Part shown: piece after piece, positions 8,668-57,770 of the stretch | Position numbering within the stretch: the first letter of the stretch is position 1 | How the letters are laid out: each line of letters begins with the position of its first letter | NCBI GenBank assembly: GCA_021200475.1 | Contig: JAJQGP010000003.1 | Location: 18,836-82,835, forward strand | DNA: 64,000 nucleotides | Reading direction: 5' to 3' | Source: Lachnospiraceae bacterium | Lineage (GTDB): Bacteria > Bacillota > Clostridia > Lachnospirales > Lachnospiraceae | Notes under the pieces: generated by a model | The model's input: only the letters and a program-made list of their open reading frames with translations | Told to the model about the DNA's origin: nothing | Database searches by the model: none | Translations under genes and position numbers: made by a program

Positions 8668-8881
8668 GTTCAGAGCAGCAACAAAATGAAAAGACAGACT
8701 GTGCAGATTTATCTGCAAAAGGCTGTATTTTCATTTTGGGATGGGCGGGCGCTGAACGTCCAGTGGACGTTCGCTTAGCGCCGACCGAAGTGGAACGGAG
8801 ACGCCCATCAGCCACAGATATATGACGCGAAAGCGGCATATAGGCTGCGTAGCAGACGGTCTGTGGCCTGCTGCTCTGAAC
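8668..8881. repeat. Family-A MITE/REP-like palindromic element (long copy)
   Basis: Perfect 13 bp terminal IR GTTCAGAGCAGCA/TGCTGCTCTGAAC; internal hairpin GAACGTCC-AGT-GGACGTTC; shares blocks with 48450-48564. Confidence 0.8.
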
Positions 8882-9065
8882 GATTAGTAGTATTATCTTA
8901 ATAAAATAAGATAGCCGCAGGGAACCGTCAAAGGAGATTGGGCGGTTTACCTGCGGCTACACTTTTACAGGTGAGCCGCGCCGTGCAGAATTGCCTGCGG
9001 CAATGGCGCGGCCTGCGTTATAAGGAATCCTCCGGCAGGCCGGTTTCCCTTATGACATATCATGA

Positions 9066-10352
9066 ATGAAGAATGGAGCAGATGATTCTATGAAACGCAC
9101 CACAAGGGGACGAAGGTCGACGGACTCAGATTCCGGGAAAAATGTAGATATTAAGATAAAACACTGGAAACTGCGTCTGGTTTTTGTGATTCTGTTTGCC
9201 ATCGTCGGAATCAGTGCGCTGGCCAATGGCGTGCTTGGCCTCCTCAGTTCGGATGACGGCTGGCAGGAGATTGAGGCGGATTCTTCGTCGACCGGGAACA
9301 ACGGCAGCGAATTCATTTTTGAATATTATCTGGGCGCGAGCGGCCTTTCCGTGTCTGCGGAGAAAAAGGCATTGATCTCGCTCTATACATCTGCGCTGGA
9401 GACGGCTTATCAGAATTTTCACAACGAGGAGAGCTTCGACGGCGTCAATAATATTTGCTATATCAACGCACACCCAAATGAGGAGATCGTAGTGGACGAC
9501 ATTCTCTACGATGCGTTTGCCCTAATGGAGGAATCTGGCGGCCGACAGCTTTATCTGGGGCCAATTTATACCGAATACAACAACCTGTTTTACTGCAATG
9601 ATGACTGGGAGACTGCGGAGTATGACCCGTATCAGAATGAGGAGGTGGCGGAGTATTTCGCGGAGATTTTATCCTACGCCTCTTCGGACGAACAGATTGA
9701 ATTGCGTCTGCTCGGAGATAACACCATAATGCTTTATGTTTCGGATGAATACCTGGCCTATGCAAAGGAAACAGGGTTCCTCAGCTATATTGACTTCTTC
9801 TGGATGAAAAACGCTTTCATCATTGACTACCTTGCTGATACGTTGATTGAAAATGGCTATACGCTCGGCGCGATCTCCAGCTATGACGGTTTTGTGCGGA
9901 ATCTTGACACCAGCGGAACTGAATGGACCTTCAACATTTACAACCGTGTGGAGCAGACGGTTTACCAAGCGGCCTCTATGGAATATGAGGGCGCGCGCAG
10001 CATTGTTTTCCTGCGCGATTACATGATGAACAGCAGCTTCGACGTCCAGCATTATTATGAGCTGGAGGATGGAGAATTCCGCACCGCTTATATCGATACG
10101 GCGGACGGATACTGTAAATCCTCGATTGACAGCCTGGTTTCTTATTCGGAGAATCTGGGCTGCGCAGAAATTCTGCTGCGAATGCTTCCTATCTATATCG
10201 CAGATGAATTTGATGCGGACGCACTGGAGGAACTGAGGGAGGATGGAATCTATTCGATCTATTGTGAGGAGCAGGTGATTTACTGCAATGACCCGGATGT
10301 CAGCATTACGGATCTGTATGACGAGGATGATGTGACGTATGTACTTGAATGA
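9066..10352 (+). CDS. Membrane-anchored, divergent ApbE-like (FAD:protein FMN transferase fold) protein
   Basis: N-terminal TM helix. Segments NNICYINAHPNEEIVVD, IDFFWMKNAFIIDYLADTL and HYYELEDGEFRTAYIDTADGY follow the order of ApbE motifs but are degenerate. Alternative start at 9090. Confidence 0.6.
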   Translation: MKNGADDSMKRTTRGRRSTDSDSGKNVDIKIKHWKLRLVFVILFAIVGISALANGVLGLLSSDDGWQEIEADSSSTGNNGSEFIFEYYLGASGLSVSAEKKALISLYTSALETAYQNFHNEESFDGVNNICYINAHPNEEIVVDDILYDAFALMEESGGRQLYLGPIYTEYNNLFYCNDDWETAEYDPYQNEEVAEYFAEILSYASSDEQIELRLLGDNTIMLYVSDEYLAYAKETGFLSYIDFFWMKNAFIIDYLADTLIENGYTLGAISSYDGFVRNLDTSGTEWTFNIYNRVEQTVYQAASMEYEGARSIVFLRDYMMNSSFDVQHYYELEDGEFRTAYIDTADGYCKSSIDSLVSYSENLGCAEILLRMLPIYIADEFDADALEELREDGIYSIYCEEQVIYCNDPDVSITDLYDEDDVTYVLE

Positions 10353-10480
10353 AAAGATTCCCAATTCAAACGAAGGAGCTGTTGAAATAACTCATGCCTT
10401 TTGTATCGCCTGAGACATTGCATAAGGTGTTTTTCGATAGCTTTTGACGTCGATATTTCAGGGAGATGTGTGGGGAAAAA

Positions 10481-12046
10481 ATGAAAAAATATCTTAATAC
10501 GATACGTTGGTATATCGTCGGTACCATTGCGGCGAACTTTATAGAAGCAGTCATTAGCGCGGTTATGCTGCTGTTTCCCGGTTGGCTTATTGATAACTAT
10601 CAAAAAGGGTTTGCATATACAGGAAAACTTCTGGCTGCATACGCGGGTGTGTTCCTGATTTATCTTGTTGAGGCATATTGTTCCAATCGTCTGGCGGATT
10701 ACCGCCGCATCCGGTTCGAAAAAGCCATAAAGAAGGACTTTTTTGATGCCGTAATTCAGCGAGACTTTGGGACATTTCACCAGTATGATGTGGCGGAATA
10801 CATTTCCATGCAGGCAAATGACATTACAGAAATGTGCCAGAACTACTTGAGCCCTCTGCTTTCTATCATTCGCTCCGTTATGATGATCGCTGTATACGGA
10901 GTGTTTCTGGTGATTTTTGTAGATATCTCCATTGCTATGGTGATTCTGATTTTCTCTGTAGCGGTGGTTTTTGTGCCGAAGCTCACGGAGAAAGATCTGG
11001 CGAAGCGGAATAAGGGCTATATGGACGGGATTGGCCGCTATACCGCTTCCGCGAAGCTTCTGTATGAAGCTCATGATATTCTGAATTTTAAGGGACGAAA
11101 AAAACTCACTGAGCTTCACGACGGGGAGTTGGATCATGTTCTGAACCTTAATATGCATTTTCGGAAGCTGAACAGCCTGGCCATGGTATTGAACGGCGGT
11201 TCTGTGGAAGCAATTGGCGTGATTGTTTTTGCAGTGATAGCTATTTTACTTGGAAATCACGCCATTACCCTTGGGATGGCGGTCAACGCCTTTACCTACA
11301 GCACCAAATTCATTGACCCCATGTACGAAATGAATATTTGTATCGGCATGGTCAATTCCGTTCGTGAGATACAGAAAAAATTGTTGGAGATCATTGGAAG
11401 CGGCATGGACGATGCTCCCGCAGATCTGCCAGCTGCGCCGGAAATCCACAGAATTTCCGCGACAGCTATGAAAAAGCACTATGACAGCGCGGACATCCGA
11501 ACCCCGGCGGCAGAGCTGTCTTTTCCGAAAAAATATCTGGTTTTGGGAGAAAACGGTGCGGGAAAAAGTGTATTCTTTCGCCTGCTCATGCATTTTGAGG
11601 AAGCTGATTCCGGTGCGGTTTTCTATAACGGATGCAAGGAGAGTGATTTCATTTCTGAAAGTATCTGTTATGTGCCCCAGGCTCCGGTGATTTTTAATGC
11701 CTCCTATCTGGAAAACGTGACGGTCTATGGCGCTTATGATGGGAAGAAGCTAAAAGAATATGAAGCGTATTTTCCGGCCGACATGATTTCCCATATTAAG
11801 AGCAGCACGAATCCTCTGAACATGAGCGGTGGGGAGAAACAGGTGGTTGCTCTGCTTCGGGCGTTATGCAGCGGAAAGGATATGATATTTCTGGACGAGC
11901 CCTTTGCAGCCATGAACCAGCATACGATTGATGAATTTATGAAGCATATAGCACAAATAAACCGAACATTGGTTATCATTGCCCACAATTTAGAACCGTA
12001 TGCGGAACAATTCGACGAACAGATCTGGATTTGTCGTGAGATGTAG
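10481..12046 (+). CDS. ABC exporter, fused TM domain plus NBD
   Basis: About 6 TM helices, then Walker A GENGAGKS, signature MSGGEKQ and Walker B IFLDEP. Confidence 0.85.
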   Translation: MKKYLNTIRWYIVGTIAANFIEAVISAVMLLFPGWLIDNYQKGFAYTGKLLAAYAGVFLIYLVEAYCSNRLADYRRIRFEKAIKKDFFDAVIQRDFGTFHQYDVAEYISMQANDITEMCQNYLSPLLSIIRSVMMIAVYGVFLVIFVDISIAMVILIFSVAVVFVPKLTEKDLAKRNKGYMDGIGRYTASAKLLYEAHDILNFKGRKKLTELHDGELDHVLNLNMHFRKLNSLAMVLNGGSVEAIGVIVFAVIAILLGNHAITLGMAVNAFTYSTKFIDPMYEMNICIGMVNSVREIQKKLLEIIGSGMDDAPADLPAAPEIHRISATAMKKHYDSADIRTPAAELSFPKKYLVLGENGAGKSVFFRLLMHFEEADSGAVFYNGCKESDFISESICYVPQAPVIFNASYLENVTVYGAYDGKKLKEYEAYFPADMISHIKSSTNPLNMSGGEKQVVALLRALCSGKDMIFLDEPFAAMNQHTIDEFMKHIAQINRTLVIIAHNLEPYAEQFDEQIWICREM

Positions 12047-12094
12047 AAAATGAAAAGGTTTGCTGTTAGATTATAAGTGAAAGGGGATGCTATA

Positions 12095-12271
12095 ATGGGG
12101 GAAACAGGAATGTCAGAGAAGGTTTTAGTGGATCAGACAATACGGGAATATGTCAATTTACAGAGGATAAAGAACACGGATGACAAAGAGAAAGAGCTGG
12201 AATACCAGGAAAAGGTTTTGAAAGCCAGGTTATCATCGATGGGGATTCCGACAGAAAATCTGGAACCTTGA
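12095..12271 (+). CDS. Small charged hypothetical protein (start 12095 or 12110)
   Basis: SD-like AAGGGG; helical, charged sequence of ~55 aa (YVNLQRIK...ELEYQEK.LKARL..MGI); followed by a terminator-like hairpin. Confidence 0.7.
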   Translation: MGETGMSEKVLVDQTIREYVNLQRIKNTDDKEKELEYQEKVLKARLSSMGIPTENLEP

Positions 12272-12343
12272 AGTAACTGTAAAGGAATGGAACAGTTGAT
12301 TTTAAGGATTGCAGAGTGATTCTTACATATTACAGAGTGAGTG

Positions 12344-12374
12344 AGAGCCTGCCGTGTTATGCGGCAGGCTCTTT
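12344..12374 (+). terminator. Intrinsic terminator-like hairpin
   Basis: AGAGCCTGCCG-7 nt-CGGCAGGCTCT, followed by TT. Confidence 0.65.
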
Positions 12375-12648: not shown

Positions 12649-13674
12649 ATGAGAGATAAGACAAAGAATGTAGAAAAACAACTGCAAACAGAGGAACCGC
12701 CTCAGCAGGAGGTAAATGTACCTGGAGACTTGAATCAGATAGAAGATGGCGTCATGAAAAAAATGATGCAGTTTTTTGCTGATGAAATGCTTCCGGTTTT
12801 TGGCATTTCAAAGAAAGTAAAAGCTCTTGCACCTACGGAGCAGGTGCGCATGGAACTCAAAAAGGGATTGCAGGATTTCAATCTTGTGATGGAAGATAAC
12901 AGTATCGCACATTTTGAGTTTCAGTCGACCAATGGGGGCAGACGCGATTTGAGAAGATTTCGCCTGTATGAGGCAGATACCAGCTATCAGCTTCGCCAGC
13001 CTGTTACTACGTATGTATTGTTTTCGGGCAATATTAAGAATCCTAAGACAAAGCTTAAGGAAGGAATCAATACATATAAGATCATACCAATTATCATGAA
13101 GAAGCAGAATGCAGATCGTATCCTGAGGCAATTGAAAGAGAAACTGAAAACCGGTCAGCCATTAACTCGAAAAGATCTGGTGATTCTTCCCATGCTCCCA
13201 ATTATGGGTGGGAAGATTTCGATAAAAGATCGGATCAAAACCGCTTACAATATTACAAAGAATGCAAACCTTATATCACGAGACGATGTGCGACTGGTTG
13301 AGTCGGCCATCTATGCGATGGCTACAAAGTTTTTGGACAAAAATGCATTAAATGAAGTGAAGGAGGAATTTACAATGAATATATTCGGAGAACTTATTGT
13401 GGAAGGGAGAGAAAAGGGCCTTATGGAGGGTCGTAAGGAGGGCCGTAAGGAAGGCCGCAAAGAGGGTCGCATAGAGGGCCGCATAGAAGGCCGCAAAGAG
13501 GGCCGTAAAGAAGGCCGCATAGAAGGTCGACAAGAAGTAATTACCGAGCAGGTAGAAAAGAAATTGAAAAAAGGAAAGACTGTTGAAGAAATTGCGGATG
13601 CTTTAGAACTGGATGAAGTTACGATCAGAGAAGTAATTGAGAAATTGTCCGGAAAGCAGCTGGTGAATGCCTGA
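12649..13674 (+). CDS. Rpn-family-like PD-(D/E)XK nuclease / putative transposase
   Basis: QDF...AHFEFQS nuclease-type motif, EG(R)xEG tandem repeats and a C-terminal helix-turn-helix-like tail (KTVEEIADALEL), all typical of Rpn/YhgA-like proteins. Confidence 0.75.
   Translation: MRDKTKNVEKQLQTEEPPQQEVNVPGDLNQIEDGVMKKMMQFFADEMLPVFGISKKVKALAPTEQVRMELKKGLQDFNLVMEDNSIAHFEFQSTNGGRRDLRRFRLYEADTSYQLRQPVTTYVLFSGNIKNPKTKLKEGINTYKIIPIIMKKQNADRILRQLKEKLKTGQPLTRKDLVILPMLPIMGGKISIKDRIKTAYNITKNANLISRDDVRLVESAIYAMATKFLDKNALNEVKEEFTMNIFGELIVEGREKGLMEGRKEGRKEGRKEGRIEGRIEGRKEGRKEGRIEGRQEVITEQVEKKLKKGKTVEEIADALELDEVTIREVIEKLSGKQLVNA
13375..13674 (+). CDS. Putative intragenic small protein (RpnS-like, 99 aa), in frame with the Rpn-like gene
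   Basis: AAGGAGG at 13360-13366, 8 nt spacer, in-frame ATG at 13375. Confidence 0.6.
   Translation: MNIFGELIVEGREKGLMEGRKEGRKEGRKEGRIEGRIEGRKEGRKEGRIEGRQEVITEQVEKKLKKGKTVEEIADALELDEVTIREVIEKLSGKQLVNA
13426..13533 (+). repeat. Nine 12-nt tandem coding repeats (EGR[K/I/Q])
   Basis: Direct repeats of the GA(A/G)GGC/TCGY-type unit encoding EGRK/EGRI/EGRQ. Confidence 0.95.
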
Positions 13675-14972: not shown

Positions 14973-15049
14973 ATGGAAACCAGAAGGAGTGTACACACTA
15001 TATAAGCGAGCAGGAGACTGATATGTGTCTCCTGCTCACAACAATTACA

Positions 15050-23014: not shown

Positions 23015-23037
23015 GGATGCAGAAAAAGGATTGCGCA

Positions 23038-23074
23038 GGCGAGCAGGATTCGGCAAGCCGTCTCCTGCTCGATT
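23038..23074. repeat. Family-C hairpin element
   Basis: 35/37 identical to the reverse complement of 52895-52931. Confidence 0.8.
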
Positions 23075-23098
23075 CGTTGTCAAAGAAGGAATGTCAGA

Positions 23099-24505
23099 AT
23101 GCAGACAGAATTGTCACAAAAAGATGAAAAATATCGGGTATTTGCGCTGGAAGCGCCGATGTGGAGGGTCATCCTGTACGTCGGCGTTCCGCTTGCTCTG
23201 TATGAGAGCCTGAATCAGCTGTTTAAGATCCTGGATACGATGATGGCCTCGCACATCAGCGCGAATGCGGTGTCAACGGTCGCTTATCTTTCGCAGATCA
23301 ATCTGATGCTCTCTGCGATCGGCGGCGGTCTGGCGGTTGGCGCAGGGATGAAGATCAGCGAGGCATACGGCGCGGGAAAGCTGGAACTGGTGAAGCGCCG
23401 TGTGAGCACGGTATTCGCGCTGTGCGCCGTGCTCGGCGGTGTGCTTCTTCTGGCACTGGTTCCATTTGCACGGGGATTTTTGAAACTTATGAATACGCCG
23501 GATGAAATCCTTGGGGAAGGGACGGTTTATTTTCGGCTGGAGTTGTTTGGACTTGTGCTTTCTTTTTTTAACAGCATCTACATTGCCATGGAGAGAGCGC
23601 GGGGAAATTCCAGACGAATTTTACACCTGAATACGGCCGTGATCGTGGTCAAGCTCTCCCTGACGGCTCTGTTTGTGTATGGGATGGGCGGCGGCGTCAG
23701 CATGATTGCGGTCGCGACACTTGCCTCGCAGGCCGTGCTGTTTGCGGCGGCGCTGGTCCATATGAATCAGAGGGAAAGCGCGTTCGGCTTTTCCCTGAAA
23801 GCAGTTTCCATGAGAGGAGAGGTGCTCTCTCCGATGCTGCACCTTTCTTTCCCTGTGATTGTAGAGAAGGCGGCCTTTTCTATGGGGAAGGTGATCGTCA
23901 ATTCGATGAGTACCGTCTATGGCACCTGGACGGTGGGCGCACTGGGAATTTCGAACAACATCGACGGAATCACGACCAGTCCGCAGAATGGCTTCCAGTC
24001 AGGCGGAGCGGCGGTGATCAGCCAGAACCTGGGTGCGAAAAAGCCGGAGCGGGCCCTCGCCGCCTTCCGGTGGACGCTGCTTATGAATGTTCTGGTCGGG
24101 TTTGTTCTGGTGAGTCTTACTCTGCTTTTTCTGGATCCCATTGTTTCTCTGTTCGCGGAGGGGAATGAAGCATTCGCGGGTATGATTAAAGAAATTTATC
24201 TTCTGGAAGCGCTCGGCGCGGTTCCGCTTGGTGTGAATGCGGCGGTGATGGCGCTCCTGTATGGCTTTGGCAAAACAAAAATCACACTGGCAATGAATTT
24301 CTGCCGGATTTTTCTGTTCCGCATCCCGGTACTTTGGGGACTGCAGCGCTTCACCGACCTTGGCAATGTCAGCGCGGGGATTGTGATGGCGGTCAGCAAT
24401 ATTTTAAGCGGTGTGCTGGCGGCGGTGGTCGCAGTGGTTGTTGTGCGGGAGATACGCAGAAGCTATGGCATTTCCATATCGGGGTTTTCGGGGCAGGAGC
24501 GGTAA
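23099..24505 (+). CDS. MATE-family efflux transporter
   Basis: About 12 TM helices, DTMMAS, two-fold internal repeat, QNLGA motif. Confidence 0.9.
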   Translation: MQTELSQKDEKYRVFALEAPMWRVILYVGVPLALYESLNQLFKILDTMMASHISANAVSTVAYLSQINLMLSAIGGGLAVGAGMKISEAYGAGKLELVKRRVSTVFALCAVLGGVLLLALVPFARGFLKLMNTPDEILGEGTVYFRLELFGLVLSFFNSIYIAMERARGNSRRILHLNTAVIVVKLSLTALFVYGMGGGVSMIAVATLASQAVLFAAALVHMNQRESAFGFSLKAVSMRGEVLSPMLHLSFPVIVEKAAFSMGKVIVNSMSTVYGTWTVGALGISNNIDGITTSPQNGFQSGGAAVISQNLGAKKPERALAAFRWTLLMNVLVGFVLVSLTLLFLDPIVSLFAEGNEAFAGMIKEIYLLEALGAVPLGVNAAVMALLYGFGKTKITLAMNFCRIFLFRIPVLWGLQRFTDLGNVSAGIVMAVSNILSGVLAAVVAVVVVREIRRSYGISISGFSGQER

Positions 24506-24622
24506 GAGGAACGGATTGTCTGCCGTGCCTGCCCCACGTGAAGCGTATCTGAAAGGGGCGCGCAGACGGAAGATATGGTGGTTATGAGCAGGTGCTTCAT
24601 GAGAATAAATGTTACGAAATAG

Positions 24623-24686
24623 GTAACAATTCAGAACAGCAGGCCGCAGGTCTACGCTCCGCTTCGATGCTGTTCTGAACTGTTAC
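24623..24686. repeat. Family-A element, internally deleted copy
   Basis: 19 bp terminal IR GTAACAATTCAGAACAGCA/TGCTGTTCTGAACTGTTAC (1 mismatch). Confidence 0.85.
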
Positions 24687-24892
24687 CGAAAATAGAACGT
24701 TTGCTAACGAAACAAAGGGCATACTGGATAATGTCGACAAAAAAATAACAGTAATGTGACAGAACTTCGAACAAAGCGTGAAAAATTTCTAAAAAAAATA
24801 TAAAAAAAGTGATGCAATTTAACGGGCGCTGTGTTAGAATAAGTACACGTGGGGATTTCCCGACAAAATTACGTGAAAAGGAGAAATGAGTA

Positions 24893-26182
24893 ATGAAAAA
24901 GAATGGTTTCAGACGCGCGATTGCTGTCGGCCTGGTTGGCGCTATGGCGCTTACGATGGCTCCGGCTGTCAGTGCAGCAGATTACGAAGAGTGCACCCTG
25001 ACGATTTCCTGGTGGGGCGGTGATTCCAGACATGAGGCGACGCTGGAAGCGATCGACGCTTTCATGGAAGCATATCCGGGTATCACAGTTGAGTCCACCT
25101 ATTCCGCATGGGACGGCTGGGAAGAGAAGATGGCTACCGCTTTTGTGGCAGGCACCGAGCAGGATATCAACCAGGTGAACTGGAACTGGATCACACAGTA
25201 TGATTCCGACGGATCGATTTTCCTGAACCTGTATGATTACGCGGATACGATTGATCTGACCCAGATCGGTGAATCCTATCTGGAGATGTGTGAGGCTTCT
25301 GACGGTTCTCTGGCAGCACTTCCGGCTTCCATGACCGGCCGTATTTTCTACTGGGACAAGACCACCTTCGATGAGGTTGGCGTAGAGATCCCGACCACTC
25401 TGGAAGAGCTGCTTGCGTGCGGCGAAGCATTTGCTGCGTATGATGAGAGCTATTATCCGATCGCCCTTGGCGAATATGACAGAATGATTCTTATGGTTTA
25501 TTATCTGGAGAGTGTTTACGGCACAGACTGGGTAATTGACAACGAGCTGCAGTATACGGCTGAGCAGATTCAGGAAGGCCTTCAGTTCATCCAGGATCTG
25601 GAAGACGCTCATGTAACTCCGACCATCGCGAAGATCACCGGCGACGGCGCTTCTTCTCTGGATCAGAACATGAACTGGATTGATGGCCACTATGCTGGTA
25701 TCTTCGAGTGGGATTCTTCCGCAGCGAAGTATCAGGGAGCTCTGGAAGAGGGCCGTGAGTTCGTAGTAGGCGATTATCTGACAGACCTTGGCGAGTATCA
25801 GGGAGGCTACACAAAGGTTTCTCTTGGCTGGGCGATCAGCACGAGAACGGAGCATCCGTATGAGTGCGCACTTCTTCTGAACTATCTGATGAACGACGCT
25901 GACGCGGCAGTGATTCTTGGTTCCGAGAGAGGTATCCCGGTATCTGAGTCCGCACTGACAGCTGCATCTGAAGCTGGCATTCTGAATGAGACGACAGTAG
26001 AAGCAAATGGCAAGGTTCTGGCATGGTGCAGCAACGCACTGGATCCGCTCTTTGAGGATTCGACTCTGAAGAGCAGCGACGGTGTTTACTATGATGTAAT
26101 GGCTGGTCTGAGCTACGGTGACTACAGCATCGAAGAGGCAGCTGAGATTCTGATCGATGGCATCAACGATGTTCTCGGCTGA
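24893..26182 (+). CDS. Sugar (oligogalacturonide-type) ABC substrate-binding protein
   Basis: ISWWGGDSRH (TogB/YesO-like), Sec signal ending AVSA-A, adjacent to two permeases. Confidence 0.88.
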   Translation: MKKNGFRRAIAVGLVGAMALTMAPAVSAADYEECTLTISWWGGDSRHEATLEAIDAFMEAYPGITVESTYSAWDGWEEKMATAFVAGTEQDINQVNWNWITQYDSDGSIFLNLYDYADTIDLTQIGESYLEMCEASDGSLAALPASMTGRIFYWDKTTFDEVGVEIPTTLEELLACGEAFAAYDESYYPIALGEYDRMILMVYYLESVYGTDWVIDNELQYTAEQIQEGLQFIQDLEDAHVTPTIAKITGDGASSLDQNMNWIDGHYAGIFEWDSSAAKYQGALEEGREFVVGDYLTDLGEYQGGYTKVSLGWAISTRTEHPYECALLLNYLMNDADAAVILGSERGIPVSESALTAASEAGILNETTVEANGKVLAWCSNALDPLFEDSTLKSSDGVYYDVMAGLSYGDYSIEEAAEILIDGINDVLG

Positions 26183-26310
26183 TGATATTGAAGCAAATCC
26201 ATCAAAGCGACATGCTGTAAGGAAGGAGCTGTGCAGGCAAATCGTCCACTGGGCGGGGCACGCACGGCCTGCATCCTCAGCTCACACTGTGAAATGAGGA
26301 CATGTGGTAA

Positions 26311-26347
26311 GGGAGCTGCTGTTGGAGAGATAGCAGCTCCCTTTTAT
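26311..26347 (+). terminator. Hairpin plus U-tract between the binding protein and the permeases
   Basis: GGGAGCTGCT...AGCAGCTCCC-TTTTAT. Confidence 0.7.
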
Positions 26348-26366
26348 AATAAGGGAGGGATTTCAT

Positions 26367-27308
26367 TTGGCTAACAAAAGCAATTCTGCAGCCGTGATCC
26401 CACACAAGGTAAAGAGAAAAGGATTGAAAGGTTTTTGCAGGGATAATATTGGTTTTTTCTTTATTTTGCCGTGGCTGATCGGTTTTCTGATTTTTAAGCT
26501 TTATCCGATGGCTTCTTCACTGTACTACAGTTTTACCGATTATAACCTCTTCCAGGGGATCAGCGTGGTTGGTACACTGCAGAACTATATTGATGTATTT
26601 ACGACATCGAAGATTACAAAAGCAATGGGAATCACATTCCGGTACGCATTTATCACCGTGCCGCTGAAGCTGATCTTTGCTCTGTTTGTTGCATACATAC
26701 TGAACTTTAAGATTAAGGGCGTGAACCTTTTCCGTACCATCTATTATATTCCTTCCATTCTTGGTGGTTCGGTGGCGATCGCCGTTCTCTGGAAAGCGGT
26801 TTTCCGTGATGAGGGTCTTCTGAATGGCGCGCTTGCGCTGATCGGGATCACCGGGCCGAGCTGGCTGAGCGATACCAGATACTCGCTGATGGTCATCTGC
26901 CTGCTGCGTGTATGGCAGTTTGGTTCTTCCATGGTCATTTTCCTGGCCGCACTGAAGGGCGTTTCGGCAGATCTCTATGAGGCAGCTGCGATTGACGGAG
27001 CGGGCAAATGGCGCCAGTTTTTCTCGATCACCGTACCGCTGATTACGCCGGTTATTTTCTACAACCTGGTAACACAGCTCTGTCAGGCCTTCCAGGAATT
27101 CAATGGACCGTACATCATTACATCCGGCGGACCGAGAAACTCTACCACATTGCTTTCACTGCTGATTTATAACAGTGCGTTTAAACAGTATGATATGGGT
27201 ATGGCGAGCGCAATGGCATGGGTATTATTTGTCATCCTGATGTTCTTTACGGTGATTGCATTCCTGTCCCAGAAATACTGGGTATTCTATTCAGATGAGG
27301 AGGGTTGA
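26367..27308 (+). CDS. Carbohydrate ABC permease
   Basis: EAA motif LYEAAAIDGAGKWRQFFSITVP. Confidence 0.92.
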   Translation: MANKSNSAAVIPHKVKRKGLKGFCRDNIGFFFILPWLIGFLIFKLYPMASSLYYSFTDYNLFQGISVVGTLQNYIDVFTTSKITKAMGITFRYAFITVPLKLIFALFVAYILNFKIKGVNLFRTIYYIPSILGGSVAIAVLWKAVFRDEGLLNGALALIGITGPSWLSDTRYSLMVICLLRVWQFGSSMVIFLAALKGVSADLYEAAAIDGAGKWRQFFSITVPLITPVIFYNLVTQLCQAFQEFNGPYIITSGGPRNSTTLLSLLIYNSAFKQYDMGMASAMAWVLFVILMFFTVIAFLSQKYWVFYSDEEG

Positions 27309-27310
27309 GT

Positions 27311-28174
27311 ATGGCTGCGGAAAGTAAAACCAAGCATTATACGATGCTTTTTCTGAGATATTTTGTCCTGATCGCGGTCGGCTTTATTATGATTTACCCT
27401 CTGCTTTGGATGGTGGGTGCGACCTTTAAGTCGAATGCGGAGATTTTCTCCAGCATCAGCTTTATTCCCAAAAATCCGACTCTGGAAGGTTATAAAGCCG
27501 CGATGAGCAGCTACGGCGGTGATATCAATATCTGGAAGGCAATGATTAATACCTATTCCTATGTAATTCCGAAGGTTGTCTTTACGGTAATCTCTGTTAC
27601 AATTACTGCGTATGGGTTTGGCCGTTTCCAGTTCAAGGGACATAATATTCTGTTTGCGATTTTGATGGCGACGCTGTTTCTGCCGCAGGTAGTATTGAAT
27701 GTCCCGCAGTTTATTATGTTTTCCAAATTTGGCTGGGTAGACTCCAAGCTGTACCTGCCAATCATCGTGCCGACTCTTTTCGCGACAGATACGCTGTTTG
27801 TATTTCAGCTGATCCAGTTTCTGCGCGGTGTGCCGAAGGATCTGGATGAAGCGGCGAAAATTGACGGATGTAATGCGGTACAGACGCTGACTAAGGTCAT
27901 CGTTCCGATGCTTTCTCCGGCGATTACCTCTATCACACTGTTCCAGTTCATGTGGTCTTCGAACGACTTTATGGGTCCGCTGCTTTATGTGAACACACCG
28001 GCGAAATATCCGCTGGCGATTTTCGTAAAGCTGTCGATGGATGCGGATTCCGGATTCCAGTGGAACAGAGTCCTTGCTCTTTCCCTGATCTCGATTATCC
28101 CGTCGCTGGTGGTATTCTTCCTGGCGCAGGATAAGTTCGTGGATGGTATCTCTGCGGGCGGCGTAAAGGGCTGA
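27311..28174 (+). CDS. Carbohydrate ABC permease
   Basis: EAA motif LDEAAKIDGC, WSSNDFMGPL; ATG at 27311 behind GAGG. Confidence 0.92.
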   Translation: MAAESKTKHYTMLFLRYFVLIAVGFIMIYPLLWMVGATFKSNAEIFSSISFIPKNPTLEGYKAAMSSYGGDINIWKAMINTYSYVIPKVVFTVISVTITAYGFGRFQFKGHNILFAILMATLFLPQVVLNVPQFIMFSKFGWVDSKLYLPIIVPTLFATDTLFVFQLIQFLRGVPKDLDEAAKIDGCNAVQTLTKVIVPMLSPAITSITLFQFMWSSNDFMGPLLYVNTPAKYPLAIFVKLSMDADSGFQWNRVLALSLISIIPSLVVFFLAQDKFVDGISAGGVKG

Positions 28175-29836: not shown

Positions 29837-29889
29837 TATCATAGTACTAAACCATTCAGAACAGCTACTGGAATCAGGAGGGAAATAAA

Positions 29890-30732: not shown

Positions 30733-30775
30733 GTGAATTGTGATAATGGAAGCGCGAGTGAGAATGAACCGTGCG

Positions 30776-30837
30776 GTTACAGGTCACACCTGCAGTGGTT
30801 GAAAGAAAGCAGGTTTGGCTATGGTGTGACCTGTAAC
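30776..30837. repeat. Family-B 62 bp element
   Basis: Perfect 15 bp IR GTTACAGGTCACACC/GGTGTGACCTGTAAC. Confidence 0.9.
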
Positions 30838-39023: not shown

Positions 39024-39722
39024 ATGAGAAAAAAAGGATTTGTTTTATTATGCCTGCTGGCTCTTTTTTCATCAGGAACAGTGTATGCCGAAGAGAGCAG
39101 GGCTTCGATCCTGCCGCTGCCGGCGGCAATTGATCTGGAAGCCATCGGGGATGGCATTCCGTATACCATACGGATTGTGCGCAGCGATCTTTCGGTTTTT
39201 GAGGGTCCCGGATATGATTATAGCTGCTGTAGCGCGATCTGGGAGAGCGGTACCTATACGATTGTTGAGGAAGCGCAGGATGAAGAAGGCAGCCTCTGGG
39301 GAAAGCTGAAATCCGGCATTGGCTGGGTGAATCTGGAGGAAGCAGTAAGCGAAGAAGCGGCGCAGTTCCCAATTACAGCGGTGTATGCAGAGGAGCAGAT
39401 GCTGGAAGAATACCGCTGCGTGGAATATCAGGCCACCGATTCGGAACAGCTTGTGAAGGTGGCGTTTCGCCCCAATGAGGCGCTTAAGGACGTGAAGCTT
39501 TCTCTGCTTGCATACGGCGAGGACGGCACCTGGGAGCTGGGAGAGGAGCTGTACGTATTGTCTGAGCTGCTGCCCGGGATGGCTTTTGTGGCAGGCGTTG
39601 AGTTCTATGGTGATATGACGGCCTATGGAATTTCCTTCACGGATGCGGACGGTTCGGAACGCAGCTTTGCGGTTCATATCAGCGGCAGAAATGGAGAACT
39701 TCTTCTGGATGAGTATAAGTAG
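39024..39722 (+). CDS. Secreted protein with SH3-like domain
   Basis: Signal peptide MRKKGFVLLCLLALF..VYA; GPG....; WGKLKSGIGWVNL SH3b-type motif. Confidence 0.7.
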   Translation: MRKKGFVLLCLLALFSSGTVYAEESRASILPLPAAIDLEAIGDGIPYTIRIVRSDLSVFEGPGYDYSCCSAIWESGTYTIVEEAQDEEGSLWGKLKSGIGWVNLEEAVSEEAAQFPITAVYAEEQMLEEYRCVEYQATDSEQLVKVAFRPNEALKDVKLSLLAYGEDGTWELGEELYVLSELLPGMAFVAGVEFYGDMTAYGISFTDADGSERSFAVHISGRNGELLLDEYK

Positions 39723-40074
39723 TTACTGGTCATACCCTGACCAGATTTACCTTATTTTGTAACAGTTCAGGATAAAAACAAAGCACGGGCAGGGAGAAAA
39801 TCTCCCTGCTCGATTCTGTTCCGGGTTTGTTCTGGCGGTGCTACAGGTCACACCTGTAGTGGCTAAAAGAACGTAAATTGGTCAAGGTGTGACCTGTAAC
39901 CTGGCGTTACTGGTCACAACCCGACCACGCACTTGCTGCGTGGTCAGGGTTGAAAACGTAGTGGAAACAGCATCCGGCCCCATCGCGCAGCGATTTCAAT
40001 TGGCCGGATGCCGTTATAGGTCACACCCGTAGAGGTAAAAATAAGGTTAATTTGGTCGGGGTGTGACCTGTAAC
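39722..40074. repeat. Mosaic cluster of family-B elements (39722-39770 partial, 39840-39900, 39906-39955 variant, 40013-40074) with a C-like hairpin at 39786-39816
   Basis: Repeated GTTAC(A/T)GGTCACAC ends and GGTGTGACCTGTAAC ends. Confidence 0.85.
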
Positions 40075-40200
40075 AACCTGGCGGAAAAAGAAAAGAGGGC
40101 GGTCAGGTTCTGCTTGCAGAAGAGAGAAAATACAGGTATAATCTGTGAAAATGAAAAGAGGTCTGGATGATAGACCGGATGAACTGGAGGAATTATCAGG

Positions 40201-48418: not shown

Positions 48419-48449
48419 ACCCAGACCACGAGCGGTAATGAAAAGTCAC

Positions 48450-48564
48450 GTAACTATTCAAAGCAGCAGCCCGCAGGTTTACGCTCCGCTTCGGTCGGCG
48501 CTAAGCGAGCGCCACTGGCGCTCCGCACCTGTCTTTTCATTTCGATGCTGTTCTGAATTGTTAC
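48450..48564. repeat. Family-A element
   Basis: GTAACTATTCAAAGCAGCA...TGCTGTTCTGAATTGTTAC; internal hairpin GAGCGCC-ACT-GGCGCTC. Confidence 0.85.
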
Positions 48565-48629
48565 AAAGTCACATATGAAGAAACAGGCGGGATTCGCATG
48601 TCTGAGATTGTGCGAATCCCGTGAACATT

Positions 48630-48921: not shown

Positions 48922-48942
48922 CTTCCAAAGATGAAAAAGCGG

Positions 48943-49004
48943 GCTACAGGTCACACCTTGACCAGATTTATCTTATTTATACATTTACAGGTGTGACCTG
49001 TAAC
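48943..49004. repeat. Family-B 62 bp element (opposite orientation)
   Basis: GCTACAGGTCACACC...GGTGTGACCTGTAAC. Confidence 0.9.
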
Positions 49005-49080
49005 GGAATCCGGAGGCAGCAGTCATTTCTTTTTATTCCCGGATTTCGAAAAAGGATCATGACAGGGAAGGCGCACAGAG

Positions 49081-51713: not shown

Positions 51714-52904
51714 ATGCAGACAGGTTATGAGCGGAATCTGAATTCGATCCCGGTCGGGGATCTGGGTATTATCGCGCTGAGAAGCTGCGAAGAGCTGGGC
51801 AGGAAGATCGATGCCCATATTGTCAACTGGCGATCGGAGCGTGTGCATGAGCATCAGGGAAGTCCGCTGCTCCTGGGGTATGATAAGACCTCCTATCTGG
51901 TGAGTACAGATGTGCCGCGTTTTGGCTCCGGTGAGGCAAAGGGACAGGTAAATGATTCGGTGCGGGGCAAGGACATCTATATCCTGGTGGATGTATGCAA
52001 CTACAGTCTCACATATTCCTTAAACGGTTATACGAACCGCATGTCCCCCGATGACCATTACCAGGACCTGAAGCGCGTGATCGCAGCGATCGGCGGGAAG
52101 ACGCGCCGGGTCAATGTCATTATGCCATTTCTTTACGAGAGTCGTCAGTTTACACGGGCGGGACGCGAGTCACTGGACTGTGCGATAGCCCTGCAGGAGC
52201 TGACGAAGATGGGCGTAGAGAATATTATTACGTTTGATGCGCATGACCCGCGGGTACAGAACGCGATTCCGCTTCATGGGTTTGAGACGGTTCTTCCGGT
52301 TTATCAGTTTATCAAAGGCCTGTTCCGCGCGGCACCGGATCTGACGATTGACCCGGAGCATCTGACGGTGATCAGCCCGGATGAGGGAGCAGCCGGCCGC
52401 GCGATTTATATGGCGAACCTGCTTGGCGTGGATATGGGGATGTTTTACAAGCGGCGTGATTACGCCCACGTCAAAGACGGCAAGCATCCCGTGGTGGCGC
52501 ATGAGTTCCTTGGCAGAGAGATAGAGGGGCAGGATGTGGTTCTCATTGACGATATGATTGTCACGGGTAACAGTATGATAGAGGCTGCCAGACAGCTCAA
52601 AAAGAGAAAGGCGAAACGCGTGCTGATCTGCGCGACCTTTGGCCTGTTCACTAACAGCCTGGAGAAGTTTGACAAGGCCTATGAGGAGGGACTGTTTGAC
52701 GCGCTGGTGACGACGAATCTGGTTTATCAGTCGCCGGAGCTGCTCTCGAAGCCTTACTACACGGGCTGCGACCTCAGCAAATATATTGCGCTGATTATTG
52801 ACACGCTGAATCATGATGGTTCCATGAGCGATCTGCTCACGCCGACTGCAAGGATTCATAAATTCCTGGCAAAACACAGAAAAACGGATAAGGCAATCGA
52901 GTAG
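51714..52904 (+). CDS. prs: Ribose-phosphate pyrophosphokinase
   Basis: RFGSGEAK, MPFLYESRQ, FDAHD, SPDEG, PRT motif VVLIDDMIVTG. Confidence 0.88.
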   Translation: MQTGYERNLNSIPVGDLGIIALRSCEELGRKIDAHIVNWRSERVHEHQGSPLLLGYDKTSYLVSTDVPRFGSGEAKGQVNDSVRGKDIYILVDVCNYSLTYSLNGYTNRMSPDDHYQDLKRVIAAIGGKTRRVNVIMPFLYESRQFTRAGRESLDCAIALQELTKMGVENIITFDAHDPRVQNAIPLHGFETVLPVYQFIKGLFRAAPDLTIDPEHLTVISPDEGAAGRAIYMANLLGVDMGMFYKRRDYAHVKDGKHPVVAHEFLGREIEGQDVVLIDDMIVTGNSMIEAARQLKKRKAKRVLICATFGLFTNSLEKFDKAYEEGLFDALVTTNLVYQSPELLSKPYYTGCDLSKYIALIIDTLNHDGSMSDLLTPTARIHKFLAKHRKTDKAIE

Positions 52905-52931
52905 GAGGCGGCTTGCCGAATCCTGCTCGCC
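52895..52931. repeat. Family-C hairpin element overlapping the prs stop codon
   Basis: AATCGAGTAGGAGGCGGCTTGCCGAATCCTGCTCGCC; near-identical inverted copy at 23038-23074. Confidence 0.8.
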
Positions 52932-53024: not shown

Positions 53025-53053
53025 GATTTCGTTTTCCTAACCGTTCAGAATCA

Positions 53054-54511
53054 TTACTGTTTTCCAAGCAGCTTTTCACCGATTCGCACGACATCTCCCG
53101 CCCCCATGGTAATCAGCAGGTCACCGGGAAGACAGTTTTCCAGAAGAAATGTCTCAATCTCATCAAAGGACGGAAAATACCAGGCTTCTTTTCCTTTCTC
53201 TTCAAGCTTATCACGCAGCAGAGCAGAGCTGACGCCGAGTGTGTCGGTCTCCCGTGCTGCATAAATGTCGGCCAGAACGATCCGGTCAGCTAAAGTGAGC
53301 GCGTCCGCAAATTCATCGAGCAGCGCTTTCGTGCGCGAGTAGGTGTGCGGCTGAAATACGCACCAGATCCGGTTTGCCGGATATTTCTGCGCGGCACGCA
53401 GAGTTGCGCGGATTTCGGTCGGATGATGGGCATAATCGTCTATAATAGTCACACCGCCGATGACTCCTTTTTTCTGGAAACGCCGGTCTGTGCCGTGAAA
53501 ACCGGCAAGACCGTCCGCGATACAGGCCGCGGGAACACCGAGCAGGTCTGCACATGCGATCGCTGCCGCAGCATTCCCTGCATTGTGTTCGCCTGGAACA
53601 TGCAGGGAAAAATGACCAAGGAGCCGGTCCCGGCATTCTTCTGCGGCATGCGTTCCCGGCTTCGGTGCGCCATCTGTGGCAGCGTCCGGCAAAGCCGCAG
53701 TTTCCTGTCTGACATACAGGTCGAAGCTGGCACAGCCCATTTCATCCCAGGTGAGGTTTTCTGCGTGATAGTCGCCGCAGCCGGAACCAAAGGTGACGAC
53801 CCGGCAGCGCAGCCCGGCGGTAAAAGCGTCCAGCTCCGGTATTTGTGCGTGAATGATGAGTGTTCCTTCCGGAGGAATCTTTTCCGCGAATAGCCGGAAG
53901 GAGTGGCGGATATCATCGAGATCTTTGAAAAAGTCCAGGTGATCGGCGTCAATGTTGAGGATCAGTCCGTACAGGGGGGTCAGATGCAGAAAGCTGTTTG
54001 TGTACTCGCAGGCTTCTGTCAGGAAGCAGTCGGAAGCGCCCACCCGTACGTTCCCGCCGATGGAAGGGAGGATGCCGCCGACGGAGATGGTCGGGTCCAT
54101 GTTCTGTTCCATCATAATATGGGCGAGCATGGAGGTCGTGGTGGTTTTTCCATGTGTTCCGGCCACAGCCACAGAGGTCGGATAATTGTCCATCAGCTGT
54201 CCGAGAAGCTCCGCACGGGACATCAGAGGGATCCCTTTCTCTACAGCTGCCGCATACTCCGGGTTATCCGGGTGAATGGCCGCCGTATACACGATCAGAT
54301 CAATGTCATCTGTCACGTTCGCTGCGCTTTGCGGGATGGCAACCCTGGCTCCCAGACCGGTCAGCCAGGCGGTCAGCTCGCTTTTTCTGGAATCAGAACC
54401 AGTCACTGTGAAGTGACGGTTTAAAAGAACTGCCGCCAGTCCACTCATACTGATGCCGCCGATCCCGATAAAATGAATGTGGATTGGCTGCGCGAAATTT
54501 ATCTGATACAT
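53054..54511 (-). CDS. murC: UDP-N-acetylmuramate--L-alanine ligase
   Basis: IHFIGIGGISMSG, GTHGKTTT, EACEY, DDYAHHPTE, FQPHTYSRT; true start MYQINF at 54511. Confidence 0.96.
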   Translation of the reverse strand: MYQINFAQPIHIHFIGIGGISMSGLAAVLLNRHFTVTGSDSRKSELTAWLTGLGARVAIPQSAANVTDDIDLIVYTAAIHPDNPEYAAAVEKGIPLMSRAELLGQLMDNYPTSVAVAGTHGKTTTTSMLAHIMMEQNMDPTISVGGILPSIGGNVRVGASDCFLTEACEYTNSFLHLTPLYGLILNIDADHLDFFKDLDDIRHSFRLFAEKIPPEGTLIIHAQIPELDAFTAGLRCRVVTFGSGCGDYHAENLTWDEMGCASFDLYVRQETAALPDAATDGAPKPGTHAAEECRDRLLGHFSLHVPGEHNAGNAAAAIACADLLGVPAACIADGLAGFHGTDRRFQKKGVIGGVTIIDDYAHHPTEIRATLRAAQKYPANRIWCVFQPHTYSRTKALLDEFADALTLADRIVLADIYAARETDTLGVSSALLRDKLEEKGKEAWYFPSFDEIETFLLENCLPGDLLITMGAGDVVRIGEKLLGKQ

Positions 54512-54832
54512 TTTAGAAACTCCTTCTGTATATAATAAAAGATAAAAGCAATCACTGTTCGATCTACCGTATCTGATTATACTCAGTTTTTTCCAAATGT
54601 CTATCAGAAAATACGCTGCTGCGGATCTCGAAGCGAGGTGGAGCGAAATCACGAAAACAACAAAAAAAGCCCTTCTGTCGCTTGAAAAAAGTAACAACTA
54701 TATTCATTACATCTGTTATTTATTCCAAATACCATAAAAAAATATAGAAATAATTGTAAAAAATGTTCACTATTCGAAAAAGGTGTGGTATAATTTGCCT
54801 TGAAACAATACTTTGACTGCAGAGGTGATAAC

Positions 54833-56125
54833 GTGATCAAGAAAGAAATGATAGCAATGCTGCTGGCTGGCGGGCAGGGAAGCCGTCTGGGGGTGCTGAC
54901 CTCGAAGGTGGCGAAGCCGGCAGTTGCTTTTGGGGGAAAGTACCGAATCATCGATTTTCCACTCAGCAACTGCATTAATTCCGGCATTGACACGGTGGGT
55001 GTCCTGACCCAGTATCAGCCGCTTCGCCTGAACAGCCATATCGGCATTGGTATTCCGTGGGACCTTGACAGAAATGTGGGAGGAGTGACCGTCCTTCCGC
55101 CCTATGAGAAAGTAGGAAAGACAGAATGGTACACCGGTACTGCGAATGCGATCTATCAGAACCTTACCTACATGGAGTCTTTCCATCCCGATTATGTCCT
55201 GATTCTGTCAGGCGATCATATTTACAAGATGGACTATGAAGTGATGCTCGACTTCCATAAAGCGCATAATGCGGATGTCAGTATCGCTGTGATGCCTGTC
55301 CCTCAGGAAGAGGCCAGCCGTTTTGGCGTCGTTGTGACGGATGGGAACGGCCGCATTCTTGAGTTCCAGGAGAAGCCGGAACAGCCTAAGAGTAACCTTG
55401 CGCCCATGGGAATCTATATTTTTACATGGAAAGCCCTGAAGGAAGCGCTTTTAGCCCTTTCAGAGCAGAGCGGGTGTAACTTCGGAAAGCATGTGATCCC
55501 ATACTGCCATGAAAAAGGCGAAACACTCGTGGCTTATGAGTTTAATGGATACTGGAAGGATGTCGGCACTCTTGGCTCGTACTGGGAAGCCAATATGGAG
55601 CTGATTGACATTATCCCGGAATTTAACCTTTATGAGGAATTCTGGAAGATTTACACGAAGAACGATATTCTGCCTCCACAGTTTGCCTCCGGGAATTCTG
55701 TGATTGAGCGCTGCCTGGTGGGGGATGGCTCCGAGATTTATGGAAAGGTTTACAATACGATCATCGGCTGTGGCGTAGTGATTGAAGAAGGCGCTGTGGT
55801 ACGCGATTCCATCATTATGCAGAATACGGTCATTAAAGCTGGTGCACAGATCAATAAGGCGATCATTGCAGAGAATGTGATCGTAGGAGAGCGTGTGCAG
55901 ATGGGAATCGGGGAAGAAGTGCCGAACCGCGAAAAGCCGTCGGTATATTCTTTCGGACTGGCTGTTATAGGGGAAAATTCGGTGATTCCTTCTGACGTCA
56001 GTATCGGAAAGAATACGGCGATTTCCGGTGTGACCGTGCCGGAAGACTATCCGGGCGGATGGCTTATGTCGGGAGAAACCCTGGAACGTCAGGAGGGACT
56101 CGGAGAGGCAGGTGATGCGTTATGA
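54833..56125 (+). CDS. glgC: Glucose-1-phosphate adenylyltransferase
   Basis: [39 protein letters not shown]; GTG start with GAGGTG SD; extended -10 TGGTATAAT at 54786-54794. Confidence 0.95.
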
Positions 56126-57249
56126 GAGCGGTAGGTATGATTTTAGCCGGAGGAAACAACTATCGGATGAGAGAACTCTCGAACCGGCGTGCCATCGCAG
56201 CTATGCCGATTGCCGGGAGCTTCCGGGCAGTGGACTTTGCACTGAGCAGCATGTCCAATTCAGGGATCCAGAAAGTAGCCGTGCTGACGCAGTTCAATTC
56301 CAGATCACTGGACCAGCATCTGAGCTCTTCCAAATGGTGGGATTTCGGCAGAAAACAGGGTGGGCTGTTTATCTTCCCTCCGATGCTTACGGCAGACAAC
56401 AGCTACTGGTATCGGGGAACAGCGGACGCGATTCATCAGAATCTGGATTTTCTGCGGCAGTGCCATGAGCCATATGTTGTGATTGCTTCAGGCGACGGCG
56501 TCTATAAGCTTGATTATGGAAAAGTACTTGAATATCACATTGCGAAAAAGGCAGATATTACCGTGATTTGCCGGGAATTTCCGCCGGATGAGGATGTCAC
56601 TCGATTTGGGCTGGTTCAGATGAACGATGACAACCGGATTGTTCAGTTTGAGGAAAAGCCGATGGCAGCAGTTTCCCATACGGTGTCCTGTGGAATTTAT
56701 GTGATTCGCCGCAGACTGCTGATTGAACTGATCGAGCAGGCGGTATACGAGGGACGGCATGACTTTGTGAGAGATGTCCTGATCCGGTATAAGGATGTAA
56801 AAAGAATTTACGGATATGTAATGGAGAGCTATTGGAGCAATATCGCCTCTGTGGACTCCTACTATCGAACCAACATGGATTTTCTGAAAAAGGAAGTGCG
56901 GGACTTTTTCTTCCACGAGCATCCGGACGTTTACTCCAAAGTAGACGACAATCCGCCTGCCAAGTACAATCCGGGGAGCAACGTGAGGAACAGCCTGGTT
57001 GCAAATGGCTGCATTATCAACGACACGGTAGAAAATTCTGTGATTTTCAAAAAGGTGTTTGTCGGAAATAACTGTGTGATTAAGAATTCGATTGTGCTGA
57101 ATGATGTCTATCTGGGTGATAATACATACCTGGAAAACTGCATTGTAGAGAGCCACGGTACGATCCGCGCGGACTCCCGCATTGTGGGGGAAGACGGGGT
57201 AAGAATTGTGATTGCGTCCGATGACAGATATCCGATGGCGGGAATATAA
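56122..57249 (+). CDS. glgD: ADP-glucose pyrophosphorylase subunit GlgD
   Basis: GlgC paralog lacking the catalytic motif; overlaps glgC (ATGA). Confidence 0.9.
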
Positions 57250-57300
57250 ACCGGATAGCCGGCAGGAAGCACAAACAACCAAAGACATGGGGGAAAGGAC

Positions 57301-57576
57301 ATGACTATTACCGACGTAAGGGTGAGAAAGGTAGCGAAAGAGGGCAAGATGAGAGCAATCGTGTCCATTACGCTGGATGATGAATTTGTAGTACATGACA
57401 TCAAAGTAATCGAAGGAGAGAAAGGCCTGTTTATCGCGATGCCGAGCCGAAAGGCGGCAGACGGTGAATACCGCGACATCGCTCATCCGATTAATTCCCA
57501 GACGCGCGAGAGGATACAGCAGATTATCTTAGAGGAATATGAGAAGACAGCGGCACAAGAGCCGCAGGATGAATGA
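57301..57576 (+). CDS. spoVG: SpoVG
   Basis: [10 protein letters not shown]...[22 protein letters not shown]. Confidence 0.97.
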
Positions 57577-57581
57577 GACGC

Positions 57582-57626
57582 AAGGGCGGCAGTTCCTGGA
57601 AAACGGGAGCTGCCGCCTTGGATTTT
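57582..57626 (+). terminator. Terminator-like hairpin after spoVG
   Basis: GGCGGCAGTTCC...GGGAGCTGCCGCC followed by TTGGATTTT. Confidence 0.65.
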
Positions 57627-57700
57627 CGCTGCTGCAGCTGACTCGCTGCGTCTTACGGAAACAATCCCTTGCCAGCCTGCCGAAGGGATGATAAAATATT

Positions 57701-57770
57701 GGCAGGCGGTCTGTGGCCTGCTGTTCTGAACAGACGATTATTCAGAACAGCATCGAAATGAAAAGACAGG
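57701..57770. repeat. Family-A ends in tail-to-head arrangement
   Basis: CGGTCTGTGGCCTGCTGTTCTGAAC followed by TTCAGAACAGCATCGAAATGAAAAGACAGG. Confidence 0.8.

Follow-up and report, generated by a model that had tools for sequence, protein, structure and literature searches.

Family A copies in the window and across the genome

The stretch of DNA analysed here, called the window throughout, comprises 64,000 nucleotides of a Lachnospiraceae bacterium (GCA_021200475.1, contig JAJQGP010000003.1; G000:C49:18836-82835 in our numbering, where G000 is the source assembly). G000 is a metagenome-assembled genome (MAG) of 3.22 Mb in 180 contigs with 50% G+C, 98% complete but fragmented. Between the long open reading frames (ORFs) of the window lie dispersed copies of a palindromic repeat, family A, which an original prediction made from the sequence alone had taken for a miniature inverted-repeat transposable element (MITE) or a REPIN-like element mobilised in trans. 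Here we show that family A is a recently active MITE, the ends of which place it with the IS66 family of insertion sequences (ISs). Each of the copies that had been listed was found on re-reading the sequence, and the copies and their parts are as follows, G015 being the sister genome used for comparison.

8662..8887, + strand: full copy of 226 bp, containing the previously listed 8668-8881 as its core; left terminus, long hairpin A, hairpin B nested in a GATGGGCG/CGCCCATC stem, branched hairpin C, right terminus.
8740..8790, + strand: B-unit hairpin of the full copy; outer stem GGCGCT/AGCGCC, inner stem GAACGTCC/GGACGTTC, loop AGT, followed by GACCGAAG.
24623..24686, - strand: 64-bp deletion derivative, which lacks the 51 nt found between two TTCG in the 115-bp form.
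48450..48564, - strand: 115-bp copy; left terminus, half of hairpin A, B unit, GACCGAAGCGGAGCGTAAACCTGCGGGC, right terminus.
57702..57731, + strand: right-end fragment (GCAGGCGGTCTGTGGCC-TGCTGTTCTGAA).
57741..57770, + strand: left-end fragment (TTCAGAACAGCA-TCGAAATGAAAAGACAGG), also present in G015.
2775..2834, + strand: left-end fragment retaining part of hairpin A in diverged form (CAGGTTTACCTGCGAAAGGGCTG).
29855..29866, + strand: solo left terminus (TTCAGAACAGCT), the remainder of the element having been deleted in G000.

The terminal 12-mer TTCAGAACAGCA was matched nine times in the window with up to one mismatch, as against 0.32 matches expected, and nine or more matches were obtained in none of 100 shuffled sequences. 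A genome-wide count revealed 138 exact matches in G000 (about 0.4 expected). Sites resembling the terminal inverted repeat (TIR) with up to four mismatches numbered 502, compared to 33 for a reversed-pattern control, and the exact 19-nt end GTAACnnTTCAGAACAGCA was found 72 times, compared to none for its control. G000 carries about 290-470 family A termini. The elements are non-coding and 38-328 bp long; BLAST with the longer copies detected at least 158 loci totalling 12.3 kb, or about 3% of the non-coding DNA. The claim that all copies are intergenic holds for the window, where every copy lies between long ORFs, and genome-wide 250 of 290 termini are intergenic, though about 88% of G000 is coding. 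Several contigs of G000 start or end inside a family A element; family A therefore breaks the assembly.

Termini, target-site duplications and mobility

The true ends of family A are 19-nt inverted repeats, GTAACnnTTCAGAACAGCA, which lie in opposite orientations and follow the pattern GTAAC(AG/TA)TTCAGAACAGCA. One end reads GTAAC-AG-TTCAGAACAGCA and continues with TCGAAATGAAAAGACAG, and the other reads GTAAC-TA-TTCAGAACAGCA and continues with GGCC(A/G)CAGACC. The terminal motif (GTAACnn) named in the original prediction is indeed present, but it had gone unnoticed that the outer GTAAC is the true boundary and that an 8-bp direct repeat, the target-site duplication (TSD), stands directly outside it. 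Among 87 paired elements this repeat was exact (8/8) in 13 and matched at 7/8 in five, whereas offsets shifted by 1, 2 or 8 nt gave only 0-2. Examples are AAATTCGA, TAACATAG, CAGAATTG and AAATGAGG, and the 8-bp target is mostly A+T-rich and intergenic. Inverted repeats starting with GTAA and 8-bp direct repeats are the signature of the IS66 family (PMC11946415), and the ends of family A agree with it in both respects.

The copies in the window are preserved to different degrees. The 115-bp copy is bordered by an exact 8-bp TSD, AAAGTCAC, at 48442-48449 and 48565-48572. The 64-bp derivative is flanked by CGAAATAG (24615-24622) and CGAAAATAG (24687-24695), a decayed TSD, and its alignment with the 115-bp copy shows one 51-nt gap bounded by TTCG, in agreement with the proposal that it is that copy deleted between TTCG microhomologies. 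The 226-bp copy has lost its TSD, and its outer GTAAC has degenerated to TAACCAG / CGATTAG; this copy is therefore old.

Comparison with sister genomes provided the empty sites that the proposal of a mobile element calls for. A 176-bp copy on contig C27 of G000 is absent from both G015 and G072, which carry the single target AAATTCGA at this place (alignment A7), and the copy on C104 is absent from G015, where its target TAACATAG occurs once (alignment A8). A third copy, on C175, is common to G000 and G015. Some family A insertions are thus younger than the split between the sister species. The copies being many rather than few, and insertion sites being polymorphic, the MITE reading stands. 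TIRs, a fixed 8-bp TSD, lack of coding capacity, hundreds of copies and precise filled and empty sites together bear out a non-autonomous element mobilised in trans, thereby confirming that family A is a real and recently mobile MITE.

The size variants were examined by comparing orthologous sites of G000 and G015, which are 94-97% identical. Four sites of the window differ between the two genomes.

Site 48450: 115 bp in G000; 49-bp terminus-loop-terminus form in G015, with TSD AAAGTCAC/AAAATCAC.
Site 8662: full 226-bp element in G000; 173 bp of tandem B units without termini in G015.
Site 29855: left terminus only in G000; element of about 180 bp in G015.
Site 57702: extra right-end fragment in G000; no such fragment in G015.

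Internal deletion and terminus loss thus distinguish orthologous copies, and most short forms and solo ends are decay products that arose largely by deletion in place. The mechanism of decay is probably slippage or template switching at the palindromes, which would erode copies to terminus-only palindromes of 38-64 bp and to solo ends, and which could also restore perfect stems. Only some forms of family A transpose as such, above all the 176-bp form: G000 holds six copies of it, four with an exact 8-bp TSD and two in which the repeat is decayed or shifted by 1 nt.

Three other features came to light along the window. A stretch of about 5 kb (about 23072-28039), holding several genes and the 64-bp MITE copy, is missing at the orthologous place in G015, and its left boundary is a hairpin at 23038-23074. 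An extra segment of 82-85 bp in G015 (L254:4457-4545, corresponding to about 51525 in the window) was considered as a family A insertion and rejected; situated between two genes, it appears to have arisen by local duplication of the CAGGAAGCTTGCGGCGCGGCATAATTAA segment just before it. Finally, a 12-nt tandem repeat of at least nine copies, with EGRK-like coding, lies at 13391-13541 inside the ORF 12649-13674.

Of the 63 species genomes of the genus, 17 contained the exact terminus. Loads were heaviest in G000 (72) and its four nearest relatives, G015 (65), G073 (59), G074 (50) and G072 (39), and no exact terminus was found among 24 genomes sampled from other families of the order. A scan of genomes of all species for the terminus returned mostly MAGs of uncultured rumen and gut Lachnospiraceae. 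Eight matches on viral contigs were all chance matches inside genes, and the 176-nt element was not found in plasmid and phage collections. The 176-nt master form is 99-100% identical across G000, G015, G072, G073 and G074, whereas the orthologous flanks at its loci are only 78-98% identical. Near-identity of the master form, together with insertions that postdate speciation, argues for a recently shared source, that is, interspecies transfer; the MITE source may have passed recently between species of the genus. Unusually strong constraint on the master form is the alternative.

Interior hairpins and their covariation

The 176-nt form is predicted to fold into a closed multi-branch structure in which the terminus stem encloses a 57-nt hairpin A, a short hairpin B' (GATGGGCG-GAA-CGCCCATC) and the branched hairpin C. 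Its folding energies are -94 kcal/mol (z = -11.0) for the RNA and -62 kcal/mol (z = -14.0) for the DNA. In the 226-bp copy of the window a 50-nt B unit is inserted in the loop of B', and the RNA fold of this copy reaches -113 kcal/mol (z = -10.8).

Compensatory change in the inner hairpin, as originally proposed, is real and wider than had been noted. Over 54 instances of the B unit, the inner stem of 7-8 bp occurs in 14 variants in which all 407 of 407 positions are paired, while the AGT loop and its flanks are invariant. The outer 6-bp stem is likewise compensated (GGCGCT/AGCGCC, GGTGCT/AGCACC, GTCGCT/AGCGAC, GTTGCT/AGCAAC). The paired fraction over both stems was 0.984, as compared to a mean of 0.886 and a maximum of 0.911 when the 3' arms were re-dealt 1000 times. 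When 20 distinct 176-nt copies were compared, both partners had changed, with pairing preserved, at 13 base pairs.

These data bear on a reading in which the MITE is only the vehicle, and the hairpin units, above all B, are functional structures of single-stranded RNA or single-stranded DNA under selection, spread both with the ends and independently of them; an RNA stabiliser, a processing site or a protein-binding site are the RNA roles that come into question. Beyond the perfect pairing of the inner stem and the invariant loop and flanks, three observations favour it. Where only one side of a stem has changed, G·T outnumbers A·C on the same strand by 9:0 in B and by 14:5 in the 176-nt form, a pattern characteristic of selection acting on a single strand. 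Besides forming tandem arrays and appearing in a variety of contexts, B units are also found free of termini: of the 44 B hairpins in G000, 15 fall outside every terminus pair. The master copy, moreover, is 100% identical across species. The strand bias of the one-sided changes and the B hairpins outside terminus pairs are left unexplained by a plain MITE model and count against it.

On the other side, template switching in palindromes restores, and indeed regenerates, perfect stems without selection; covariation alone is therefore no proof of selection on RNA. The wobble counts are small and some of the instances share descent. The orientation of family A with respect to neighbouring genes is random (29 vs 28), and neither a promoter nor an intrinsic terminator was found within the element, so that the data do not require a host-level RNA role. 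Rfam gave no match in the window at gathering scores; at E <= 1 the only matches were microRNA-precursor-like, at 21-30 bits as against gathering scores of 68-100, to a 277-bp copy on L262, and we read these as chance. Family A is thus excluded as a known RNA family at Rfam thresholds. Taken together, a selected role of the hairpins seems doubtful, though it is the alternative that survives best. In its specific form, the B unit (a hairpin in two tiers that has an unvarying AGT loop and is followed by GACCGAAGCG as its tail), and perhaps other hairpins, would be a structure-selected module captured and spread horizontally within the genus by an IS66-type MITE. We regard this as a minor possibility, in favour of which speak the strand-asymmetric tolerance of G·T and the occurrence of terminus-less and of tandem copies.

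Some of the terminus-less B units of G000 adjoin another hairpin family. A third palindromic repeat (GAGCAGGAG...CTCCTGCTCGCC) is present in the window at 15004-15037, 23038-23074 and 52895-52931 and recurs downstream of genes. Elsewhere in G000 it directly adjoins terminus-less B hairpins (contigs C17, C46, C143 and C106).

The probable IS66 connection and related systems

Since the ends of family A start with GTAA and are flanked by an 8-bp duplication, we examined IS66-type genes in relatives. No transposase was found between terminus pairs in G000 or in the other MAGs examined: the large terminus pairs of G000 (1.1-2.6 kb), considered as a partner IS, enclose only housekeeping ORFs, as do those of other MAGs. 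Canonical IS66 copies in G001 and G019 were rejected as partners for their different ends, GTAAATGTAAAACC. A divergent single-gene IS66-type IS on G021:C116 is related, but it has GTTACTATTCACAG ends, with an 8-bp TSD ACTATTTT, and was likewise set aside. A search with the protein of this IS over 400 Lachnospiraceae genera led to a more distant clade of about 1815 bp, both ends of which read GTAACT(A/G)TTCAGAACC.

A member of this clade, L141:1281-3095, has GTAACTGTTCAGAACC at both ends, a TSD CAAATTTT and a single ORF of 484 amino acids (P0002). P0002 scored 253.9 bits on the NCBIfam model 'IS66 family transposase' (NF033517; cut-off 180) and matched Pfam DDE_Tnp_IS66 (PF03050) with E = 1.9e-44, its N-terminus being DUF6444. 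The clade IS, which putatively belongs to the ISBst12-like subgroup in ISfinder, is common in Lachnospiraceae and in gut metagenomes. Both ends were paired 1.6-1.9 kb apart at 64 of 80 clade loci from gut metagenomes, in the form GTAACT(A/G)TTCAG(A/C/T)ACC, and 14 of the paired loci had exact 8-bp TSDs. A truncated copy is present in G002, a species of the same genus as G000. The termini of MITE and IS are identical over GTAAC..TTCAGAAC, the first 15 nt (alignment A1), and a DDE_Tnp_IS66 transposase bounded by this 15-nt core was seen in other genomes.

Several results weigh against assigning family A to this clade. Positions 16-19 of the terminus differ, the MITE having AGCA and the ISs usually CCCC or CCAC. 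An IS with the full 19-nt terminus (...GAACAGCA) was not found among 80 metagenome and about 35 genome loci of the clade, all of which read ...GAACC, and a search of genomes across the family gave none either. IS66-type transposases were not detected in G000 or in the MITE-rich G015 and G072-G074. Comparison with shuffled sequences showed no significant resemblance of the MITE to the IS inward of position 15 (TCGAAATGAA vs TCGAAAATGAA; p = 0.08-0.8). Five rumen MAGs in which a sister MITE has the same terminus, furthermore, yielded no IS66-type transposase. This second MITE occurs in rumen Lachnospiraceae MAGs (L001-L108, e.g. L040, L062, L029 and L057) and has the identical 19-nt end, GTAACTATTCAGAACAGCA, around a different A+T-rich interior (cataaattttaaaatatgaaccgtcaagc...). 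Since two MITEs share the 19-nt end, an IS with the full end probably exists somewhere. As for the source genome itself, G000 has no contigs under 2.5 kb, and a multi-copy IS of 1-2 kb would collapse and be dropped; its absence from the assembly therefore says little. The other MITE-rich genomes are likewise fragmented MAGs, from which such an IS would be lost.

The same results would suit a MITE of another transposase family, in which the 15-nt identity with the IS66 clade is coincidence or convergence: none of the MITE-bearing genomes yielded the cognate IS, and terminus positions 16-19 differ (AGCA as against CCCC, CCAC and similar). We consider this quite improbable, for the match covers 13 specified bases placed precisely at the two boundaries of the IS, MITE and IS have the same TSD length of 8 bp and the same host family, and the genus itself contains a truncated copy of the IS. 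Ends starting with GTAA together with 8-bp direct repeats are, in addition, diagnostic of IS66 (PMC11946415).

We therefore favour the view that family A is likely to be a non-coding passenger of an IS66-family DDE transposase. The identity of 15 nt at the IS boundaries and the equal TSD length make the IS66 clade the most likely transposase source. The transposase would be supplied by the 1.8-kb single-gene IS, with ends GTAACT(A/G)TTCAG(A/C/T)ACC and an 8-bp TSD, or by a close unseen relative, and would bind the shared 15-nt terminus and move family A in trans. The original prediction could not match the element to a named family; its GTAA ends, 8-bp TSD and first 15 nt now supersede that statement. 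A match to a described IS family had been named there as grounds for giving up the MITE reading, which in the event it refines. A search for a partner with the same termini had also been suggested: an IS sharing 15 of 19 nt and the TSD length was found, but none with the full 19 nt.

A second MITE of the window, 'Family B', is 61-62 bp long with ends GTTACAGGTCACACC (30772-30837, 39719-39758, 39836-39901, 40004-40077 and 48940-49013). G000 holds 215 of its termini, compared to 6 for a control; there are 53 pairs, and an exact 8-bp TSD was seen six times. In starting with GTTAC and duplicating 8 bp, Family B is reminiscent of the G021-type IS66 clade (ends GTTACTATTCACAG).

The remaining alternative, that family A consists of REP/REPIN-type palindromic units which a domesticated Y1 (RAYT) transposase mobilises in the form of single-stranded hairpins, is highly improbable: the elements are hairpin-rich and intergenic, their stems covary and 15 of 44 B units lack termini as REP units do, but PF01797 (Y1_Tnp) had no match in G000 (98% complete, fragmented) while being positive in 6 of 14 control genomes, the termini match a DDE IS, and long TIRs, a fixed 8-bp TSD and clean empty sites are not made by REPINs. 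The search for a RAYT gene that had been suggested was thus negative in G000, and we reject the REPIN-like part of the original prediction.

The IS66-linked MITE reading can be set beside other known systems. With single-ORF IS66 ISs, family A shares GTAA-starting TIRs, the 8-bp TSD and, in the Lachnospiraceae clade of about 1.8 kb, ends identical over GTAAC..TTCAGAAC; it differs from them in that the MITE has no gene, an interior unrelated to that of the IS and other bases at positions 16-19. BOX elements of Streptococcus pneumoniae have the arrangement boxA-(boxB)n-boxC, and the likeness to them is architectural only, with two pairing end modules and a middle hairpin unit that may be missing, single or tandemly repeated; a relation in sequence is not expected. 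Both occur between genes in large numbers and are rich in structure, but in family A the IS family can be identified, the TIRs are clear and 19 nt long and the TSD is 8 bp, and its host belongs to Clostridia rather than Bacilli. Closer in kind are the Correia elements of Neisseria, enterobacterial ERIC and other bacterial MITEs, which are likewise short, non-coding and intergenic, with TIRs, TSD, long hairpins and size variants due to internal deletion; family A works like RUP just as it does like Correia and ERIC. Correia elements duplicate TA. Family A differs from Correia and ERIC in its termini and TSD length, and in a branched multi-hairpin interior, the units of which also occur without termini. 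REP/BIME and REPIN are, like family A, intergenic mosaics of palindromic units with compensatory stem variation. REPINs are moved by RAYT (Y1) transposases and do not have a TIR plus TSD; the TIRs and TSD of family A, and the absence of a PF01797 (RAYT) match in G000, set it apart from these.

Family A is therefore a new MITE family of an ordinary kind, which stands outside the Correia, ERIC, RUP and BOX families and with IS66 by its ends. A literature search for the element, or for IS66-derived MITEs in Lachnospiraceae, found no paper. Family A opens no new category of system; it provides a worked example of a recently active, IS66-linked MITE in uncultured gut and rumen Lachnospiraceae, and accounts for many contig breaks in these MAGs. 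Its insertion polymorphisms are usable as strain or species markers. The copies also form a data set of palindromic repeats remodelled in place by deletion, terminus loss and unit amplification, which could help to separate structural selection from the self-correction of palindromes. MITE copies that are identical across species differing by 8-20% in their genomes, finally, point to a transposase source moving between gut species.

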